DNA of 64,000 nt from Shigella phage ESh20. The stretch lies in sequence record ON528730; one strand, 5' to 3'. The notes under the pieces were generated by a model. The model was not told where the DNA came from. It did not search any database and was given only the letters and a program-made list of their open reading frames with translations. Both the position numbers and the translations under genes were made by a program. This document shows positions 45,612 to 52,225 of the stretch, one piece after another (positions within the stretch are counted from its first letter, which is position 1; each line of letters opens with the position of its first letter).

Positions 45612-45687
45612 TGGAGTATCGGAAGGGACTCGAACCCTCATAAACCTGTTTTGCAGACAGGCACATAACCATTTCTGACACCGACAC
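45612..45687 (-). tRNA. tRNA-Cys (anticodon GCA)
   Basis: Acceptor GTGTCGG/CCGATAC, discriminator U, anticodon loop CUGCAAA, T-arm GAGGG-TTCGAGT-CCCTT, CCA encoded. Confidence 0.7.
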
Positions 45688-45693
45688 ATAATT

Positions 45694-45786
45694 TGGAGGA
45701 AGATACCAGACTTGAACTGGTACGCCGATTTCTCGGTTACTGGCAGTTTAGCAAACTGCTCCCTTACCTTTTAGGGTTAATCTTCC
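45694..45786 (-). tRNA. tRNA-Ser (anticodon GCT), type II
   Basis: 7-bp acceptor, T-arm ACCAG-TTCAAGT-CTGGT, long variable arm, anticodon loop TTGCTAA, 3-bp D stem. Confidence 0.65.
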
Positions 45787-45787
45787 A

Positions 45788-46522
45788 TTATTTGTTCAGA
45801 GCTTCTTTCATCTCTGGAGTTGCGATAGTATCAATCACACCAGTTTTACATGAATCATCAAACCAGCTTGGTAGAACATTCGCAAGGAAACCATTAATAT
45901 TTGTTTTCAGGTATTCTGCAATCAGTGCTGCTTCATCTGCAATCATCTGAGTTACTTCATTAGCATATGCAGTAATCTTTGCAATACCCTCATTAATCGC
46001 TGTAACGGCCTGTGTAGCGAGTTCAGAGATTGTATCTAGTCCTTGGTCGATTGCATCTTGCAAATCGCTTAGAACGCTATTTACAGCGTCTATGGAGGTA
46101 TTAATCAAATCCATCGCTTTATTACCGTACTCGGTAGCTACGCCCATGATACCGCTAAACGGTGTACATCCAACCTGTTCACCTGCTGCCCCCATAACGT
46201 TAGAGTAACCTTTAGCCACTTGCATACGTTGTGAAAACTCATCTACAGACTTTTGTCCATACTCAGTAAGTGTACTTGTCGTTGAAGTTGTACTTCCAAG
46301 GCTTGTTGTGAAGCTTCCTAATAAGGCTGTTGTCAGTCCAGCAGCAACTAAAATCTGTTGTGTAGCTGGGTCTGTTACAGAACTAATTGAGTTAACTAAT
46401 GATTGAGAGGCAGCTATAGTACCACCAAGAACTGCTGCACCAGTAATAAGAGGGTTTGAGAAACCATTACCAGTTTTAAGGAGATTAAAAATCTCTTTAC
46501 TTTGTTCTGTCATCTCTTTCAT
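45788..46522 (-). CDS. Hypothetical protein embedded in tRNA array (about 244 aa)
   Basis: ORF track frame; start moved to ATG 46522 to avoid overlap with tRNA at 46539. Confidence 0.45.
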   Translation of the reverse strand: MKEMTEQSKEIFNLLKTGNGFSNPLITGAAVLGGTIAASQSLVNSISSVTDPATQQILVAAGLTTALLGSFTTSLGSTTSTTSTLTEYGQKSVDEFSQRMQVAKGYSNVMGAAGEQVGCTPFSGIMGVATEYGNKAMDLINTSIDAVNSVLSDLQDAIDQGLDTISELATQAVTAINEGIAKITAYANEVTQMIADEAALIAEYLKTNINGFLANVLPSWFDDSCKTGVIDTIATPEMKEALNK

Positions 46523-46538
46523 TATGCACCTATAAAGT

Positions 46539-46614
46539 TGGTAGCCCATCGGGATTTGAACCCTGTTCTCATGTTTTTCAGACACGCGCTTTAACCATAT
46601 AAGCTAATTGAGCT
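46539..46614 (-). tRNA. tRNA-like gene, tentative tRNA-Phe (anticodon GAA), imperfect T-stem
   Basis: Anticodon arm CGTGT-CTGAAAA-ACATG, T-loop TTCAAAT with only 3 clean stem pairs, acceptor pairing 6/7. Confidence 0.4.
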
Positions 46615-46621
46615 ATTAAAT

Positions 46622-46698
46622 TGGGGTGACCTACGGGAATCGAACCCGTATAGACCATGTTCACAGCATGGGTCATTATCCATTTATGATAAGGCCAC
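46622..46698 (-). tRNA. tRNA-His (anticodon GTG)
   Basis: Acceptor GTGGCCT/AGGTCAC, discriminator C, T-arm ACGGG-TTCGATT-CCCGT, anticodon loop CTGTGAA. Confidence 0.7.
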
Positions 46699-46729
46699 AT
46701 TTAAGGACTCTCGTAAGAACCCTTAGAAG

Positions 46730-46805
46730 TGGCAGCAGTATAAGGATTTGAACCTTAATCTTTCAGCTTCAGAGGCTGGAGCATTGCCAGTTATGCTATA
46801 CTGCT
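46730..46805 (-). tRNA. tRNA-Gln (anticodon CTG)
   Basis: Perfect 7-bp acceptor, T-arm TAAGG-TTCAAAT-CCTTA, anticodon loop CTCTGAA. Confidence 0.6.
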
Positions 46806-46811
46806 AATATT

Positions 46812-46890
46812 TGGTACTCCATATCGGATTCGAACCGATACATAACACAGATTTTAAATCTGGCCTCTCTGCCAATTGGAGTAATGGAGC
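46812..46890 (-). tRNA. tRNA with Leu-type anticodon TAA (tentative), short variable region
   Basis: T-arm ATCGG-TTCGAAT-CCGAT, anticodon loop TTTAAAA, Leu-like D-loop containing CCAATTGG. Confidence 0.45.
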
Positions 46891-46892
46891 AT

Positions 46893-46968
46893 TGGCGGGG
46901 GATGATGGAATTGAACCATCTTCTTCGATTTCAAAGACCGAGGTTTTAACCTTGTAAACTAATCCCCT
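46893..46968 (-). tRNA. tRNA-Gln (anticodon TTG)
   Basis: T-arm GATGG-TTCAATT-CCATC, anticodon arm TCGGT-CTTTGAA-ATCGA, A1:C72 mismatch at acceptor end. Confidence 0.55.
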
Positions 46969-47194
46969 AACGAACTCTTGAAAGAATATATGCGTTATTG
47001 CAAGTATCCTTATTTTCAGGTAGTGATGTTTCGAAGATAACTTGCTTAAGTTCTAATCCAGCAAAGTTATAAACAATCTTTCTAACTTCTAACGGGTCAC
47101 ATTGCCAACCAACCGCTATAAAGAAAGTATCTCCAAATCTACCTGTTTCAATCTTGTGGTCATCTTTATGTTTTTCAACTATGAGTTTATACAT
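46967..47194 (-). CDS. Hypothetical protein within tRNA array (75 aa)
   Basis: ORF track; fills gap between two tRNAs. Confidence 0.35.
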   Translation of the reverse strand: MYKLIVEKHKDDHKIETGRFGDTFFIAVGWQCDPLEVRKIVYNFAGLELKQVIFETSLPENKDTCNNAYILSRVR

Positions 47195-47212
47195 AATGTT
47201 ACCTATTAAATT

Positions 47213-47289
47213 TGGTGCAGAATAGAGGATTCGAACCTCTAACTAACAACTTCGTAGGTTGCTGCTCTATCCATTTGAACTAATTCTGC
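47213..47289 (-). tRNA. tRNA-Arg (anticodon ACG)
   Basis: Perfect acceptor GCAGAAT, T-arm AGAGG-TTCGAAT-CCTCT, anticodon loop CTACGAA. Confidence 0.7.
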
Positions 47290-47467
47290 AATATCCTTTT
47301 GAGATTCCTGTCTAGCTCTCTTCTTATCTCTTCTGAGAAAGCGTTTACGATGGTCTGTACGCCATTTGTAATAATCTTCTTCACCATCATGTGCTGCACA
47401 GCAGCCACAACTTGCAATTTCAACTTTACCATGTCTACCATAAGGCTTCATAGGAATCTCCTAAAAT

Positions 47468-47545
47468 TGGTGTTCCAAGACGGATTCGAACCGTCACTAA
47501 TACAAGGTTTGAGCTTGCATCCTCTGCCAATTGGGATACTGGAAC
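47468..47545 (-). tRNA. tRNA with Leu-type anticodon CAA (tentative), short variable region
   Basis: T-arm GACGG-TTCGAAT-CCGTC, anticodon arm GCAAG-CTCAAAC-CTTGT, D-loop with CCAATTGG. Confidence 0.45.
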
Positions 47546-47546
47546 T

Positions 47547-47621
47547 TGGTACTCGCTGAAGGACTTGAACCTTCTTCACCAACTTGTAAGGATGGAGCTT
47601 TACCATATAAACTAAGCGAGC
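47547..47621 (-). tRNA. tRNA-Val (anticodon TAC)
   Basis: T-arm GAAGG-TTCAAGT-CCTTC, anticodon loop CTTACAA. Confidence 0.55.
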
Positions 47622-47716
47622 TTTGAAGAGGTCTGAAGCTGTGCCGCTAACTCAACTCCGTGGAATTTGTTACGGTCTTCAGTTGACTCAAGCGGTCTTT
47701 CACTTGACCTCAAAAT

Positions 47717-47792
47717 TGGTGCTCCCACAAGGATTCGAACCCTGATAAGTTGCTTACAAGGCAACCGTAATAGCCAATTATACGATAAGAGC
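47717..47792 (-). tRNA. tRNA-Thr (anticodon TGT)
   Basis: T-loop TTCGAAT, anticodon arm GTTGC-CTTGTAA-GCAAC, acceptor with two G:U pairs. Confidence 0.55.
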
Positions 47793-47798
47793 ATTATT

Positions 47799-47873
47799 TG
47801 GAGCATCCAGAGGGAATCGAACCCTCAACCTCAGTTTGGAAGACTGTAATTTTCCCGTTTAAACTATGGATGC
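47799..47873 (-). tRNA. tRNA-Gly (anticodon TCC)
   Basis: Perfect acceptor GCATCCA, T-arm GAGGG-TTCGATT-CCCTC, anticodon loop CTTCCAA. Confidence 0.7.
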
Positions 47874-47879
47874 ACTAAT

Positions 47880-47955
47880 TGGTGGAGAAGCAGGGAATTG
47901 AACCCTGTACTTAAGTTTGCAAAACTTATGTTTTAACCATGTAAACTACATCCCC
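47880..47955 (-). tRNA. tRNA-Ala (anticodon TGC)
   Basis: T-arm CAGGG-TTCAATT-CCCTG, anticodon loop TTTGCAA, G3:U70 wobble pair characteristic of tRNA-Ala. Confidence 0.7.
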
Positions 47956-47961
47956 ATTGTT

Positions 47962-48037
47962 TGGTACAGGTGGAGGGAATTGAACCCATCATCTTACTGA
48001 TTAAGAGTCAGCCGCATAACCATTTTGCTACACCTGC
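47962..48037 (-). tRNA. tRNA-Lys (anticodon CTT), T-stem with only 3 clean pairs
   Basis: Acceptor GCAGGTG/CACCTGT, anticodon arm CTGA-CTCTTAA-TCAG, T-loop TTCAATT. Confidence 0.5.
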
Positions 48038-48043
48038 ATTAAT

Positions 48044-48120
48044 TTGGTACACCTAGAGAGATTCGAACTCACACTGAGCAGATTCTAAGTCTGCTGCCTC
48101 TTCCAATTGGGCTATAGGTG
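48044..48120 (-). tRNA. tRNA with Leu-type anticodon TAG (tentative), short variable region
   Basis: Anticodon arm GCAGA-CTTAGAA-TCTGC, 3-bp D stem with loop CAATTGGAAGA. Confidence 0.45.
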
Positions 48121-48376
48121 CATTAAATCTTTGTAGAGAACTGCTAAGACGCCAAAGCAACAATGGTATCAAATGCCTTAACAATTCTCTAAAAAGACCT
48201 ATTGGCCTTTGCATAGTCTTGCTTAATCCGGTGACTAGAACCTTTGGAGAGCTTGATACTATCTCTTCTCCGTGACACCTACTAGGTGCTTTACCAGTGC
48301 CGTGTACGCCAATACACGAAGAGGAAACCTGAAACACTTGCTCGAACAAATAGTCTCAGCTTTAAATCTTATTAGG

Positions 48377-48464
48377 CGGTAGATAAAGGAGTCGAACCCT
48401 CACCGTATCTCTACAATGGCAATAGTTTTCAAGACTATTTGGCTTCCATTAGCCGCTACCTACC
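48377..48464 (-). tRNA. tRNA-Ser (anticodon TGA), type II, CCA not encoded
   Basis: T-loop TTCGACT, long variable region, anticodon arm ATAGT-CTTGAAA-ACTAT, acceptor GGTAGGT/ATCTACC. Confidence 0.5.
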
Positions 48465-48477
48465 CCTAATAAGACTT

Positions 48478-48560
48478 TGGCATGGGACGGAGGATTCGAA
48501 CCCCTTTGAGTAAGTTTTGGAGGCTTACGCACATGCCTTAGTGTCTTAACATCGTCCCAT
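48478..48560 (-). tRNA. tRNA-Trp (anticodon CCA), enlarged D region
   Basis: Perfect 7-bp acceptor ATGGGAC/GTCCCAT, T-loop TTCGAAT, anticodon loop CTCCAAA, about 8 extra nt in D region. Confidence 0.5.
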
Positions 48561-48724
48561 ACTATATTTCGAAGCTTACCCTGTTATCTCAACACTGTCA
48601 AGCTTCTTCTCAGATTATTTACATGTTCTGGAAAACATGAGATACAGACCACCTCCTTATGAGATTGACTCTTTCAAGTCAATGCGGAGACCCATAAAGG
48701 TCGTCATAGTAATCTGCTAACTAA

Positions 48725-48843
48725 TTGGCAGTCAAGGTAGGAGTCGAACCTACTTACTATTAAAGGGAGCTACCCTTCAGCAACTATCCGACTTTCGTTT
48801 ATCTCTTAACGCGTATCCAAGATAACTTACTCGTGTTGTCTTG
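48725..48843 (-). ncRNA. tRNA-like element with about 40-nt internal insertion (not a canonical tRNA)
   Basis: CCA-rc and 7-bp acceptor AGTCAAG paired with CTTGACC 119 nt apart; canonical T-arm GTAGG-TTCGACT-CCTAC; no canonical anticodon arm identified. Confidence 0.4.
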
Positions 48844-48854
48844 ACCATTAAAAT

Positions 48855-48931
48855 TGGCACACCCTACAGGATTCGAACCTGTAACTGACGGTTTAGAAGA
48901 CCGTTGCTCTATCCGTTTGAACTAAGGGTGC
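48855..48931 (-). tRNA. tRNA-Arg (anticodon TCT)
   Basis: T-arm ACAGG-TTCGAAT-CCTGT, anticodon arm ACGGT-CTTCTAA-ACCGT. Confidence 0.7.
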
Positions 48932-49178
48932 ATTATCTTTAAAGGCTCTCTTAGAAAACCCTTAAAGATGCCCACTTTATTAATCATACCGTGGGCTAGT
49001 ACGCCAAATTCTTTAACAGGGAGTTGGAATACCCTGCTGGTGTTTAGCCTATTAAGCTACTGCCAGAAAAACATTATCGTTTGCATTTATTTTTAAGTTT
49101 TTAAAATAGACGCTACGCTAACGAAAACTAAGGTTATCTTAAAGTGGTCACATCTGAATGTCAACAACTTTATGAAAT

Positions 49179-49254
49179 TTGGTACTGGTAGGTGGAATCG
49201 AACCACCGATATTCCCTTATCAGGGGAGTGTTATAACCTTCTTAACTATACCAG
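49179..49254 (-). tRNA. tRNA-Ile (anticodon GAT)
   Basis: T-arm GGTGG-TTCGATT-CCACC, anticodon loop CTGATAA. Confidence 0.65.
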
Positions 49255-49256
49255 CA

Positions 49257-49333
49257 TTGGAGGTTCAGGTGGGAATCAAACCCACATTCATAGGGCTTAT
49301 GAAACCCTTGCATTACCTTATCTGCGACTGAAC
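49257..49333 (-). tRNA. tRNA-Met (anticodon CAT), elongator-type (G1:C72 paired)
   Basis: Perfect acceptor GGTTCAG, T-arm GTGGG-TTTGATT-CCCAC, anticodon loop TTCATAA. Confidence 0.6.
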
Positions 49334-49415
49334 CATTATAAGTTGCCCCTTTGTAGAGAACTGATTGAGTGGGTGTTTCCAGCCGCGCATGTGTTCTTCA
49401 GTTAAGGGGCGAATT

Positions 49416-49491
49416 TGGTAGAAGTGGAGGGATTCGAACCCGTCGCCTGTCAGATTAAAAGTCTGCCGCATCACCATTCTGCTACACTTCC
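49416..49491 (-). tRNA. tRNA-Lys (anticodon TTT), same T-stem pattern as Lys(CTT)
   Basis: Anticodon arm CAGA-CTTTTAA-TCTG, T-loop TTCGAAT with 3 G:C pairs. Confidence 0.5.
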
Positions 49492-49914
49492 ATTAAATCA
49501 TCTTTGCAGTAACCTACGCAAACCTTGCTAAAGGGTTTGTAGAGTCATCTCTTATAAGCTAATCTAGAATCATGCTCAAGAGACTCTTCGGCACTCATGG
49601 GACGACTGGTTAGCTCCATAAGTCACTGCAAAGAGGATTACCAGACCGTATTTATCTTAAGTGCTTCCATTACACCAACACGCCGTAACGTGTGAAGGAA
49701 TCGAACCTTCGCCTTTTCTTTATAAGAGAAATAGATTGTTTATTGTTTGCTGTAAACGGTCTTCTGTAAAATTGTTGGAACCAGACCAAGTTTTAAATTT
49801 TTCAAATTAAATTGGCTTGAAATATTAAAATTGCTTGCTGTATTTGGTCTTCTGCTCCTTTAAAGAATACTCGTAAGAACTCTTTAAGGGAGGGGCTAAA
49901 AAGCCCTCTCAAAT

Positions 49915-49991
49915 TTGGCGGTTACGAAGGGATTCGAACCCTCATCATCCTCCGTGACAGGGAGGTATTTTGACCAGTTAAACTACATAAC
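49915..49991 (-). tRNA. tRNA-Asp (anticodon GTC)
   Basis: T-loop TTCGAAT, anticodon arm CCTCC-CTGTCAC-GGAGG. Confidence 0.7.
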
Positions 49992-49997
49992 CTTTAT

Positions 49998-50085
49998 TTG
50001 GTGCGCCGTGAAGGAGTCGAACCTCCCGAGTCATAATGACAAGTGATTTACAGTCACCACCGCTTCCATCTACGGGATAACGACG
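49998..50085 (-). tRNA. tRNA-Tyr (anticodon GTA), type II
   Basis: T-loop TTCGACT, long variable arm hairpin, anticodon loop CTGTAAA, 3-bp D stem. Confidence 0.6.
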
Positions 50086-50154
50086 CATTTTATTCTATTC
50101 AGGCTAAGGACTTGCACCTTACAAATCGGTGAGCAATCGCTTCTCTCCCAAATC

Positions 50155-50231
50155 TTGGCGGTTAGTCAGGGATTCGAACCCTGTACCATTCGGTTAACAG
50201 CCGACCGCACATGCCTTATGTGCTTCCTAAC
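50155..50231 (-). tRNA. tRNA-Asn (anticodon GTT)
   Basis: T-arm CAGGG-TTCGAAT-CCCTG, anticodon arm TCGG-CTGTTAA-CCGA. Confidence 0.65.
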
Positions 50232-50315
50232 CATGTTAGTATTACCAGACCGTATCTTTTCATTTTTTGCCTATAAAAAATTTTAAGTGTTTGCTGTAAA
50301 CGGCCTTCTGTAAAT

Positions 50316-50392
50316 TTGGAGGCGGGTGTAGGAGTCGAACCTACCGATAACATGCTAATGAGACATGTGAGACACCCTTTCTCTATACCCGC
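50316..50392 (-). tRNA. tRNA with CAT anticodon and unpaired position 1:72 (initiator-like or Ile2-like)
   Basis: T-arm GTAGG-TTCGACT-CCTAC, anticodon loop CTCATTA closed by T:G pair, U1:C72 mismatch. Confidence 0.5.
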
Positions 50393-50479
50393 AATTCTTA
50401 ATGACCAGACCAAATCTTTTTTGGATTTCTATGCGCGAAATTGAAAAGTTTGTTTGCTGTAATTGGTCTTCTGTCAAAA

Positions 50480-50557
50480 CTGGCATTCCCGAAGGGACTT
50501 GAACCCTCAAACCACACCTTGAAAGGGTGTTGACTTTACCTAATTTGTCTACGGGAA
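50480..50557 (-). tRNA. tRNA-Glu (anticodon TTC)
   Basis: Perfect acceptor CGGGAAT/ATTCCCG, T-loop TTCAAGT, anticodon arm ACACC-CTTTCAA-GGTGT. Confidence 0.7.
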
Positions 50558-50563
50558 TATAAT

Positions 50564-50643
50564 TTGGTCTCCGTTGAAGGATTTGAACCTTCGACCCCTT
50601 GCTCCCAAAGCAAGTGCTGCTAAACCAAACTGAGCTAAACGGA
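50564..50643 (-). tRNA. tRNA-Pro (anticodon TGG)
   Basis: Perfect acceptor, T-arm GAAGG-TTCAAAT-CCTTC, anticodon arm CTTGC-TTTGGGA-GCAAG. Confidence 0.7.
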
Positions 50644-50775
50644 GATAATCTTTTTAACAACCTATGTAACAACTATAACACTATTTTTTAGTGTCTGTCA
50701 AGAGGTTTTTTAAAATAATTTGATTTATTTCAGAAAACTTCTTTTTCGTTTCTATGTAGAACATATTAAAGGGTA

Positions 50776-50809: not shown

Positions 50810-52225
50810 TTACCAATCGTAGCGTTCAATAATTACTGCTTTGAGCATTACGCTGATAGGGTCAAACTTCTCACCACCAAGCAAAGCTTTTAAAGTGGCT
50901 GGAGAGAAACCAGATACCATCGCTACACCGTTATCCTTTACAGACACTTCGCAAGTACCGTTACGGTTTGCTAAGTACCAGAATACCAGTTGTGGCATCT
51001 CATATCCAGCTTTCTTGTACTTTTCTTGAATTGCTTCAAAGTTAGTACGACCATCTGCTCCATCAACCTGATTAAACTGCATATCAGAGAAGATGATAAG
51101 CTTACTAGGCATCTCTTTCTGAGTCAAGTTGTTTTTAACACCAGTCTCAAGGATTCTTGCAAAAGCAGCTTGTAGGTCAGTTGAACCATACTCTACATGA
51201 CTCTTCACTTGACGTAAGCGAGTCTGTAAATCACCACTCAATGTGATGAAGTGAGGTCTGCTAGAGTAAACCATCAATTCATCTTTAAAGCAACCTGTAT
51301 TACGTTCTGAAACGTACAGGGCTAAAGATACACCAATGTCTAGCGCTGTAACAGAACCATGTCGCTCCCAAGTCATAGATGAAGATACATCTGCCATGCA
51401 CAGAATGTTCTCACCCTCTTTCATCCAGTTTGGTAAAGCTTTCCACTGCTCATTTGCAACGGTTGCATTACCATAACCGACTGACTTTGTAATGTCATAA
51501 GGGTAGACTGCACCAGCATTAATCTTTGTCTCACCTTTAGTCAGTGCTGCAATGTATGCTGCATAACGCTCACCATCTTTACGACTGAAGAGTTTTTGAT
51601 AACGTGCAGCAGCCAGTGAAGGAAGCTTGCTGTAATCAATCTCTCCGAACTCATTTGCTGAAATCTTTTGTTCAACAGTATCAGACAGTGCTGACAGAAG
51701 AACTCGATACTGCTTCTCTGAAAGATTTGCAAACTTACAGAAACGACGAACAAAACGCATGTGTCGTGATTTTACTCGTGGTAACCATTTTGCTGCCAGA
51801 GCCGATGTTGCAGGGTCTAACAGTGCAGCTTCTAAATGCTTGAAAGCATCTGTTTCGTAACGTGTACCAACAAAGATTTTAAAGTCGTCATAACGACCTA
51901 AATCAGAAATCTTGTCCATGATACGTAACACTTGGAACTCATCAAGAATCCCGTCAGAGATTGCTTTAGTAAGAGTATAACGGAACGCTTTACGCTCACC
52001 CATACCTTCTCGTGCATCTCGCATATGTAACAGGATTCGAACTGCTACATCAATATCTTCTCGCATTGCCTTGTAAAACAAGTTTGGAAGAACTTCTACG
52101 TTTGTTCTGCTTGAACCAGCAGCTTTGTAGAAATCTACCAGTGCAGACATTGAAGAGGTGTGGTTAACAGCACCGTTTTCAGTTAAACCTGCATGTAAAT
52201 GCGAGTGTTTAAATAATTCGCTCAT
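50810..52225 (-). CDS. vWA-domain protein with N-terminal domain of unknown function
   Basis: MIDAS-like DxSxS motif in ILCMADVSSSMTWERHG at about residue 279; 471 aa; adjacent to tRNA array. Confidence 0.55.
   Translation of the reverse strand: MSELFKHSHLHAGLTENGAVNHTSSMSALVDFYKAAGSSRTNVEVLPNLFYKAMREDIDVAVRILLHMRDAREGMGERKAFRYTLTKAISDGILDEFQVLRIMDKISDLGRYDDFKIFVGTRYETDAFKHLEAALLDPATSALAAKWLPRVKSRHMRFVRRFCKFANLSEKQYRVLLSALSDTVEQKISANEFGEIDYSKLPSLAAARYQKLFSRKDGERYAAYIAALTKGETKINAGAVYPYDITKSVGYGNATVANEQWKALPNWMKEGENILCMADVSSSMTWERHGSVTALDIGVSLALYVSERNTGCFKDELMVYSSRPHFITLSGDLQTRLRQVKSHVEYGSTDLQAAFARILETGVKNNLTQKEMPSKLIIFSDMQFNQVDGADGRTNFEAIQEKYKKAGYEMPQLVFWYLANRNGTCEVSVKDNGVAMVSGFSPATLKALLGGEKFDPISVMLKAVIIERYDW

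Follow-up and report, generated by a model that had tools for sequence, protein, structure and literature searches.

By the textbook rule, tRNA-Leu is of type II, bearing a long variable arm, everywhere but in animal mitochondria. Three tRNA genes in a 64,000-nucleotide (nt) stretch of DNA from Shigella phage ESh20 (sequence record ON528730; the whole stretch is referred to here as the window) have leucine anticodons and no such arm. A preliminary description of the window, made from the sequence alone, offered two explanations: either its manual parse was wrong, or the genes specify unusual isoacceptors with altered identity. What, then, are these genes? We find that they are phage-borne representatives of type-I tRNA-Leu, a class that is known but seldom discussed, while the host's own tRNA-Leu are all type II. 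They are probably functional leucine isoacceptors charged by the host leucyl-tRNA synthetase (LeuRS).

Structure and leucine identity elements of the three tRNAs

The window is ∼99% identical to Shigella phage Sf17 (Ounavirinae) and belongs to a Felix-O1-like enterobacterial phage. ARAGORN finds an array of 26 tRNA genes in it, with small open reading frames (ORFs) between them, and calls three tRNA-Leu at the expected loci (Table 1). The anticodons UAA, CAA and UAG are the same from ARAGORN and from alignment to the Rfam tRNA model RF00005 (gathering score 29 bits), with no differing assignment from either; the Rfam alignments span the full model (1-71), put these triplets where the anticodon belongs, with only 5-7 nt separating the anticodon stem from the T stem. 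The three scores exceed the Rfam threshold by 15-27 bits. Two of the loci lie exactly where the preliminary description had put them, and the third, given there as 48044-48120, was off by 1 nt. The lengths of 77-79 nt and variable regions of 5-7 nt that it gave are reproduced by ARAGORN, by Rfam and by our own parse, none of which identifies a long arm. CCA is encoded in all three genes and is counted in these lengths.

In each tRNA, the acceptor stem has 7 bp and is followed by UA at positions 8-9; the D stem has 3 bp and closes an 11-nt loop (CAAUUGG(C/A)AGA), the anticodon stem has 5 bp, the T loop is UUCGAAU and the discriminator is A73. The 3-bp D stems and the D-loop motif CCAATTGG, both reported earlier, hold in all three. 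Variable regions of 5-7 nt are too short for any stem, so the genes lack the long arm of type II (>10 nt with a stem). The suspicion of a faulty manual parse can be dropped, as two predictors and an independent parse agree with it, and this confirms that three leucine tRNAs without a long extra arm are truly encoded by the phage. The short variable region is specific to Leu, because the Ser and Tyr tRNAs of the same array keep arms of 15-21 nt.

Table 1. Positions of the three tRNA-Leu genes and of other features in and beside the tRNA array
Feature	Position	Strand	Length	Variable region	Remarks
tRNA-Leu(UAA), type I	46812..46890	-	79 nt	GUUAUGU (7 nt)	G1:U72, A73; ARAGORN; Rfam 46.9 bits
tRNA-Leu(CAA), type I	47468..47545	-	78 nt	AUUAGU (6 nt)	A73; ARAGORN; Rfam 44.0 bits
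tRNA-Leu(UAG), type I	48045..48121	-	77 nt	UCAGU (5 nt)	G1:U72, A73; ARAGORN; Rfam 56.1 bits
Array of 26 tRNA genes with small ORFs between	45612..50644	-			ARAGORN; three are tRNA-Leu
tRNA-Ser(GCU)	45694..45786	-	93 nt	21-nt arm	ARAGORN and parse; type II kept
tRNA-Ser(UGA)	48375..48464	-	90 nt	20-nt arm	ARAGORN and parse; type II kept
tRNA-Tyr(GUA)	49999..50086	-	88 nt	15-nt arm	ARAGORN and parse; type II kept
Candidate 27th tRNA, degenerate or atypical	49686..49760	-			Rfam 30.1 bits; no ARAGORN call
DUF7217 protein ORF	45788..46585	-	265 aa		Within the array
Small ORF	46967..47194	-	75 aa		No Pfam match
Small ORF	47239..47451	-	70 aa		No Pfam match
ORF adjoining the array	50810..52225	-	471 aa		Matches DUF2828 and DUF7788

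To see how far the phage tRNAs depart from those of the host, we parsed E. coli K-12 leuW (UAG), leuZ (UAA) and leuX (CAA), which have the same three anticodons, in the same way. The preliminary description had set the phage genes against a long-arm bacterial norm, and the host genes bear this out, with variable regions of 13-15 nt as opposed to 5-7 nt. In architecture the two sets are otherwise the same. The host genes also have a 3-bp D stem and an 11-nt D loop; A14, A15, G18G19 and A20a keep the register that they have in the phage; their D loops, (A/G)AAU(U/C)GGUAGA, match those of the phage in length and register; and A73 and a variable region ending in U (U48) are common to all. The G1:U72 pair of leuZ recurs in two of the three phage tRNAs (UAA and UAG), and the anticodon loop of phage Leu(UAA), UUUAAAA, is that of leuZ. 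Differences are found at position 9, which is G in the host genes and A in the phage, and in the tRNA bodies as a whole, which are 57-64% identical between phage and E. coli when the variable region is excluded. The anticodon loop of phage Leu(UAG) has C32 and A37 where leuW has U32 and G37 (the m1G37 site), and the two loops differ at three positions in all; A37 is also present in about two thirds of viral type-I tRNA-Leu with NAG anticodons.

According to a 2023 review of the identity elements (PMC9976931), the features on which E. coli LeuRS relies are A73, the A15-U48 Levitt pair, G18G19, A20a and contacts of the D loop with the T loop, and A14 also belongs to the elements that reportedly qualify an E. 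coli tRNA for LeuRS. Identity rests on neither anticodon nor long arm, and arm-less minimal variants of E. coli tRNA-Leu remain active (Larkin 2002; Asahara 1993, 1998; Tocchini-Valentini 2000, as summarised in PMC9976931). For tRNA-Ser, arm size is a major identity element for SerRS (PMC9976931). All three window tRNAs have U8, A14 and A15 together with a U-ended variable region, and the U8:A14 and A15:U48 pairs can be predicted in each. Judged by sequence, they carry every element reported for an E. coli LeuRS substrate. The arm may have been lost from Leu while Ser keeps it because it is dispensable for E. coli LeuRS but a major element for SerRS. Bacterial TyrRS, too, contacts the variable arm of tRNA-Tyr. 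In a 2025 computational study of the sister phage Sf14, whose Leu genes are near-identical to those in the window, the tRNAscan-SE Leu model came out top for all three Leu genes, with isotype scores (those of Sf14) of 67.4, 49.1 and 60.2.

Distribution of type-I tRNA-Leu in phages and bacteria

The three genes are not peculiar to this phage. The tRNA region is matched by 358 phage records, the majority from Felix-O1-like myoviruses (Ounavirinae) that infect Escherichia, Salmonella, Shigella and Citrobacter, and the genes are already annotated as tRNA-Leu in matching records, including that of Sf17, which is 99.2% identical over the tRNA array region. Leu(UAA) is present nearly full length in 254 phage records, almost always at ≥95% identity. 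Comparison with related phages, which had been recommended as a check, shows that the feature is not due to chance: Leu(UAA) and Leu(CAA) are identical at 78 of 79 and 78 of 78 positions, respectively, between the window phage and the Felixounavirus Mushroom. This is higher than the 89% average for tRNAs matched between the two arrays, and from such identities Leu(UAA) and Leu(CAA) are judged to be under purifying selection. The UAG slot behaves otherwise and has been exchanged among relatives. At the syntenic position, Mushroom and Salmonella phage FG1m hold an unrelated tRNA-Leu(UAG) (GGGAGAUUGACGGUAAUUGGUAAACC..., 46/78 identity) that is also type I (Mushroom, locus L362, 3183-3260; FG1m, locus L363, 3921-3998; the window counterpart is in Table 1).

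Two further features of these relatives were noted. FG1m carries a hybrid tRNA gene (L363, 4501-4578) with a 5' part from Leu(CAA) and a 3' part from Leu(UAA), with the junction inside the GGTTCGAATCCG T arm that both share; the genes found between the two in other phages are absent, the acceptor stem pairs at 6 of 7 positions, and the gene is unannotated in the record. In GenBank KP143762 (Salmonella phage Mushroom), the tRNAs are annotated on the strand opposite to their sense, that of the terminase and other genes.

Beyond the close relatives, a BLAST search with Leu(UAG) matches annotated tRNA-Leu in phages of Mycobacterium, Streptomyces, Gordonia, Klebsiella, Enterobacter, Pseudomonas, Enterococcus, Acinetobacter, Synechococcus and others, with matches covering most to nearly all of the gene; identity is ∼80% over nearly the full length for tRNA-Leu of Klebsiella, Mycobacterium and Streptomyces phages. 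Klebsiella phage KaOmega (Vequintavirinae) has tRNA-Leu of 77 and 78-80 nt beside tRNA-Ser of 87-97 nt. Lengths are similarly small in Mycobacterium phage ArcherS7 (three genes, 74-76 nt), Streptomyces phage BoomerJR (76 nt, plus one of 82 nt), Pseudomonas phage 16Q (75 nt), Enterococcus phage EFDG1 (74 nt), Acinetobacter phage vB_AciJM_313 (two genes, 73 nt), Synechococcus phage S-CBWM1 (74 nt, plus two of 80-81 nt) and the KVP40-like Vibrio phage 1.081.O (two genes, 74 nt). The combination seen in the window genes, a Leu anticodon with a Leu-type D arm and an unstructured variable loop of ∼5-7 nt, is also the layout in KaOmega, ArcherS7, BoomerJR, 16Q, EFDG1, S-CBWM1 and Vibrio 1.081.O. Type-I tRNA-Leu has been kept independently in other gammaproteobacterial phages, namely KaOmega, Vibrio 1.081.O, Pseudomonas 16Q and an Acinetobacter phage.

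Some phages have both forms. In BoomerJR a second Leu gene (locus L003, 6089-6170), which shares the anticodon UAG and has an intermediate variable region of 13 nt, adjoins the type-I copy, and S-CBWM1 (L370) likewise combines type-I tRNA-Leu with genes in the 80-82-nt range. Pairs of the BoomerJR kind may be intermediates in arm loss, or both forms may be used in parallel. Phage T5 resembles the window phage in carrying tRNA-Leu within the tRNA cluster of a virulent enterobacterial phage, but its tRNA-Leu(UAG) is type II (85 nt with a 13-nt arm) where that of the window phage is armless. For tRNAs of T5, suppressor tests are recorded in the annotation. The tRNA-Leu of phage T4 is type II as well. 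The type-II form in these classical coliphages probably explains why the armless one has drawn little comment.

To gauge how common the form is, pattern scans were made of IMG/VR (for type-I Leu and for tRNA-Arg(UCU)) and of genomes, each of which gave at least 120 loci, numbers that are lower bounds. The type-I Leu pattern began with AATTGG, and its sample is biased towards that D loop. Among the IMG/VR matches listed, the variable regions of tRNA-Leu are bimodal, with 154 of 217 at 5-8 nt, while those of tRNA-Ser are ≥14 nt in 87 of 88 and those of tRNA-Tyr ≥10 nt in all 38. In the sample anchored on the unrelated tRNA-Arg(UCU) pattern, 5 of the 41 tRNA-Leu among the matches listed are short, in 4 of 33 Leu-bearing loci; this sample consists partly of host tRNAs flanking prophages, which makes the type-I fraction of 12% a rough one. 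Type I is a recurrent minority form.

In a set of 160 distinct viral type-I tRNA-Leu, standard pairs fill 97% of stem positions, as compared with 40-60% at most positions when the sequences are shuffled, and 19 of the 20 stem pairs occur as 3-6 pair types, which indicates compensatory change. A73 is found in 95% of these sequences, a U-ended variable region (U48) in 94% and a 17-nt D arm in 81%, none of which the search pattern demanded. When 144 genomic type-I sequences are considered along with the viral ones, A73 and U48 are kept in about 95%.

In cellular genomes, scanned as one genome per species with the same type-I Leu pattern, 78 of the 112 tRNA-bearing loci among the matches listed (L242-L361) hold a single tRNA in 8 kb. 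Judging by the record titles of the matches listed, these genomic type-I tRNA-Leu belong largely to Actinomycetota chromosomes, with the genera Nocardia, Gordonia, Mycobacterium, Rhodococcus, Corynebacterium, Bifidobacterium, Arthrobacter, Amycolatopsis and Streptomyces represented, and their commonest D arm, GCCCAAUUGGCAGAGGC, is almost identical to that of the window genes. In a further 18 of the listed loci, 9-34 tRNAs are packed into a dense array; these come from Acidobacteriota, Nostoc, Asanoa and others. The actinobacterial singletons have UAA, CAA or UAG anticodons and are not confined to Streptomyces; the dense arrays hold several type-I Leu genes. The window genes are therefore not unusual in the sense of being unique, as the same architecture is found in other phages, in tRNA arrays and in Actinomycetota. 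A BLAST search with Leu(UAG) against 5,426 complete E. coli genomes gave no match, and so no host or prophage source for this gene is indicated. The best type-I matches to the window tRNA bodies, in a set selected on AATTGG and with one near-identical viral contig (L107) set aside, are 75-81% identical, against 57-64% for E. coli; mean body identity to this AATTGG-selected set and to E. coli differs by only ∼0.04-0.06, and the way in which the set was gathered biases the comparison.

Four further known systems offer points of comparison. One is the type-I tRNA-Leu(CAA) of S. coelicolor described by Fan et al. 2019 (PMC6614811), who state that nearly all bacterial tRNA-Leu are type II. It has a 5-nt variable loop, short like those in the window, and occurs alongside type-II tRNA-Leu and a single LeuRS; the U8:A14 pair matters for it, and its variable loop needs at least 5 nt (PMC6614811). 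A Streptomyces sp. homologue (L275) has the D arm GCCCAAUUGGCAGCAGGC, with a 12-nt loop, close to that of the window genes. However, the S. coelicolor gene is chromosomal and essential, has C48 and is served by a LeuRS that does not use A73, whereas the window genes are phage-borne and have U48 and A73. The LeuRS that charges the S. coelicolor tRNA is actinobacterial and has a special leucine-specific domain, whereas the window tRNAs must suit an enterobacterial enzyme.

Another system is that of the mycobacterial tRNA gene clusters and Bxz1-like mycobacteriophages, where an armless Leu gene likewise sits in a mobile multi-tRNA array beside a type-II isoacceptor of the host; Behra et al. 2019 (PMC6582537) remark in a single sentence that the tRNA-Leu(TAG) of the mycobacterial cluster has a short variable loop. 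These type-I tRNA-Leu are ∼80% identical to the window Leu(UAG). Their hosts are actinobacteria, whose chromosomes often carry type-I tRNA-Leu, in contrast to the E. coli genomes searched. Animal mitochondrial tRNA-Leu, such as human mt-tRNA-Leu(UUR), are also type I, with A73 and A14 as identity elements (PMC9976931), but they are structurally relaxed and have a dedicated LeuRS; the phage tRNAs have a canonical elbow of G18G19 and UUCGAAU and are not of the mitochondrial type. Engineered arm-less E. coli tRNA-Leu are charged if A73 and the tertiary contacts of the D and T loops are intact, and the phage tRNAs have exactly these features; the engineered molecules are laboratory constructs, of which the phage genes would be the natural counterparts. 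In the literature we found no description of short-arm tRNA-Leu in phages. The related publications found were the Streptomyces study and the mycobacterial-cluster remark, and the Sf14 paper never uses the word 'variable'. The wide phage distribution of type-I tRNA-Leu seems to have gone undescribed so far.

Proposed charging and decoding, and alternative explanations

The codon usage of the phage fits the anticodons of the three tRNAs. In the 41 long ORFs of the window, leucine is encoded by TTA (25.2%), TTG (16.1%), CTT (28.4%), CTC (4.8%), CTA (9.3%) and CTG (16.3%), and the three codons that the anticodons match directly, TTA, TTG and CTA, make up 50.6% of the total. The Sf14 study found TTA and CTA to be significantly over-used relative to Shigella. 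From the sequences we infer that the three tRNAs are expressed, leucylated and used in translation. In the proposed scheme, the three genes would be transcribed together with the rest of the 26-tRNA array. The encoded CCA, A73, U8:A14, A15:U48 and the host-like D loop would offer enterobacterial LeuRS the acceptor end and elbow that it recognises, and the host enzyme could leucylate the armless tRNAs because it uses neither the anticodon nor the long arm for identity. The charged tRNAs would decode UUA/UUG, UUG and CUA (and other CUN codons by wobble), codons that are far commoner in the AT-rich phage than in its host, and so would supplement rare host isoacceptors. The arm would have been lost because the host LeuRS does not need it. 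As the armless form recurs in unrelated phages and actinobacterial chromosomes, we take them to be, most likely, normally functioning leucine tRNAs of a type that has received little notice.

Several observations weigh against this interpretation. The most direct comes from Fan et al. 2019 (PMC6614811), according to whom E. coli LeuRS 'only charges type II' and fails to leucylate the S. coelicolor type-I tRNA-Leu(CAA). In addition, the C-terminal domain of E. coli LeuRS contacts arm nucleotides 47f-47i and its leucine-specific domain favours large arm loops, because of which charging of the phage tRNAs may be less efficient. The phage genes themselves have blemishes, namely C27-U43 in a stem of Leu(UAA), a U50-U64 mismatch in the T stem of Leu(UAG), and A37 in place of the G37 of leuW in the UAG species. 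Folding each sequence singly does not decide the matter (z = -2.1, -1.8 and -0.6), and for Leu(UAG) the structure of minimum energy differs from a cloverleaf; such folding is uninformative for AT-rich unmodified tRNAs, and we relied on the covariance model and on covariation instead. The S. coelicolor tRNA has C48, whereas all three window tRNAs have A15 and the reportedly required U48, and the negative result may transfer to them only doubtfully. That result also sits uneasily with the studies of arm-less variants reviewed in PMC9976931. The study of Fan et al. is the sole biochemical one on a bacterial type-I tRNA-Leu, and the wide phage distribution conflicts with its conclusion that E. coli LeuRS charges type II only.

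If E. coli LeuRS is taken at the word of that study (PMC6614811), the three tRNAs would not be host substrates at all, but decoys, regulators or primers outside translation, or poorly charged passengers. The contacts that the enzyme makes with the arm and the weak thermodynamic stability of the three tRNAs point the same way. We nevertheless regard this as very unlikely: the tRNAs keep all LeuRS identity nucleotides, including the A73 and U48 conserved throughout the viral and genomic family, their CCA is encoded, the anticodon loop of Leu(UAA) equals that of the host down to the A36-A37-A38 context of the host modification enzymes, and the anticodons fit the preferred Leu codons of the phage. 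A decoy would not need all these features. Charging by another synthetase, with UUR and CUA codons partly recoded during infection, is suggested only by the type-I shape, which removes a feature that helps to separate type-II from type-I tRNAs. The identity rules applied here to the other synthetases are partly general knowledge and partly from PMC9976931. By these rules the three tRNAs have no G3:U70 (AlaRS), A35 rather than U35/C35 (LysRS, GlnRS, TyrRS, ArgRS), no C36 (ValRS), no G34 (PheRS) and no CAU (MetRS, IleRS), so that no signature of another synthetase is present beside a complete set of LeuRS elements. The published Sf14 isotype models put Leu first, and recoding ∼4% of all codons would be highly deleterious. 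The altered identity contemplated in the preliminary description finds no support in these comparisons, and recoding is highly improbable. The chance that the genes are parsing artefacts or decaying pseudogenes is slighter still to our minds, and close to nil. Although there are two stem mismatches and FG1m carries a recombinant hybrid Leu gene, this reading is refuted by the agreement of ARAGORN and Rfam, by scores well over threshold, by near-identical genes in hundreds of genomes and by strong covariation in the family.

The remaining alternative accepts that the tRNAs are charged and used, and adds an anti-defence refinement to that explanation: the armless form would be adaptive because such copies escape nucleases or toxins, of the host or of competitors, that target tRNAs by reading the type-II shape or the host anticodon loop. 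Phage tRNAs can counter tRNA-cleaving defences, as with tRNA-Tyr against retron Eco7, and mycobacterial tRNA arrays have been discussed as putative anti-defence units. Salmonella, one of the genera infected by Felix O1-like phages, has a tRNase specific for tRNA-Leu, the Gifsy-1 terminase; the Leu(UAG) anticodon loop departs from that of the host at three positions; and type-I Leu recurs in many unrelated phage lineages. On the other hand, no nuclease that reads the variable arm of tRNA-Leu was found in the literature, evasion of this kind does not apply to the singleton type-I tRNA-Leu of actinobacterial chromosomes, and neutral loss of a dispensable arm fits the data equally well. We consider such selection for escape rather unlikely, and our results lend it no support. 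A specific link to the Gifsy-1 nuclease is ruled out, since it cuts the anticodon region of CAG isoacceptors, none of which the phage encodes.

Charging of the three tRNAs by host LeuRS, the explanation we prefer, would have consequences beyond this phage. Conservation of the three armless Leu genes is strong in a phage family whose hosts are E. coli, Shigella, Salmonella and Citrobacter. If the host LeuRS charges them, they would be natural minimal substrates that define what the enterobacterial enzyme really needs, and scaffolds for tRNA engineering, and type-I tRNA-Leu would be a normal feature of phages and not a prediction error. If it does not, a role outside translation would fall to three conserved tRNA genes, and that would be of even greater interest. 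The ordinary outcome, charging by the host enzyme, is the more likely of the two. A broader proposal, which we put forward tentatively and hold to be on balance unlikely, is that armless tRNA-Leu form a widespread and possibly horizontally circulating lineage of phages and arrays across bacterial phyla, that enterobacterial LeuRS naturally charges type I, as the occurrence of the form in several coliphage-like lineages would mean, and that arm loss may be selected, for instance to evade enzymes that read type-II tRNAs. If this were true, natural charging by enterobacterial LeuRS would contradict both the claim that this enzyme charges type II only and the textbook type-II rule.

Other features of the tRNA array

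The array holds several further features (Table 1). The candidate 27th tRNA, whose Rfam score is just over threshold, combines a good T arm (GAAGGUUCGAUUCCUUC) with a poor D arm, and its loop CUUAUAA may hold the anticodon UAU. The DUF7217 protein ORF and the two small ORFs lie within the array; the 70-residue product of one of the small ORFs is Cys-rich, and its gene overlaps the 5' end of tRNA-Arg(ACG). In Mushroom, a different ORF, annotated 'holin', is found between Leu(CAA) and Gln(UUG), and that phage has no tRNA-Arg(ACG). The 471-residue ORF with matches to DUF2828 and DUF7788 directly adjoins the array, and its FG1m homologue is annotated 'RNA-binding protein'. In Streptomyces phage BoomerJR, a Ro-like RNA-binding protein is encoded near the tRNA array, and tRNA arrays and RNA-binding proteins may be associated.

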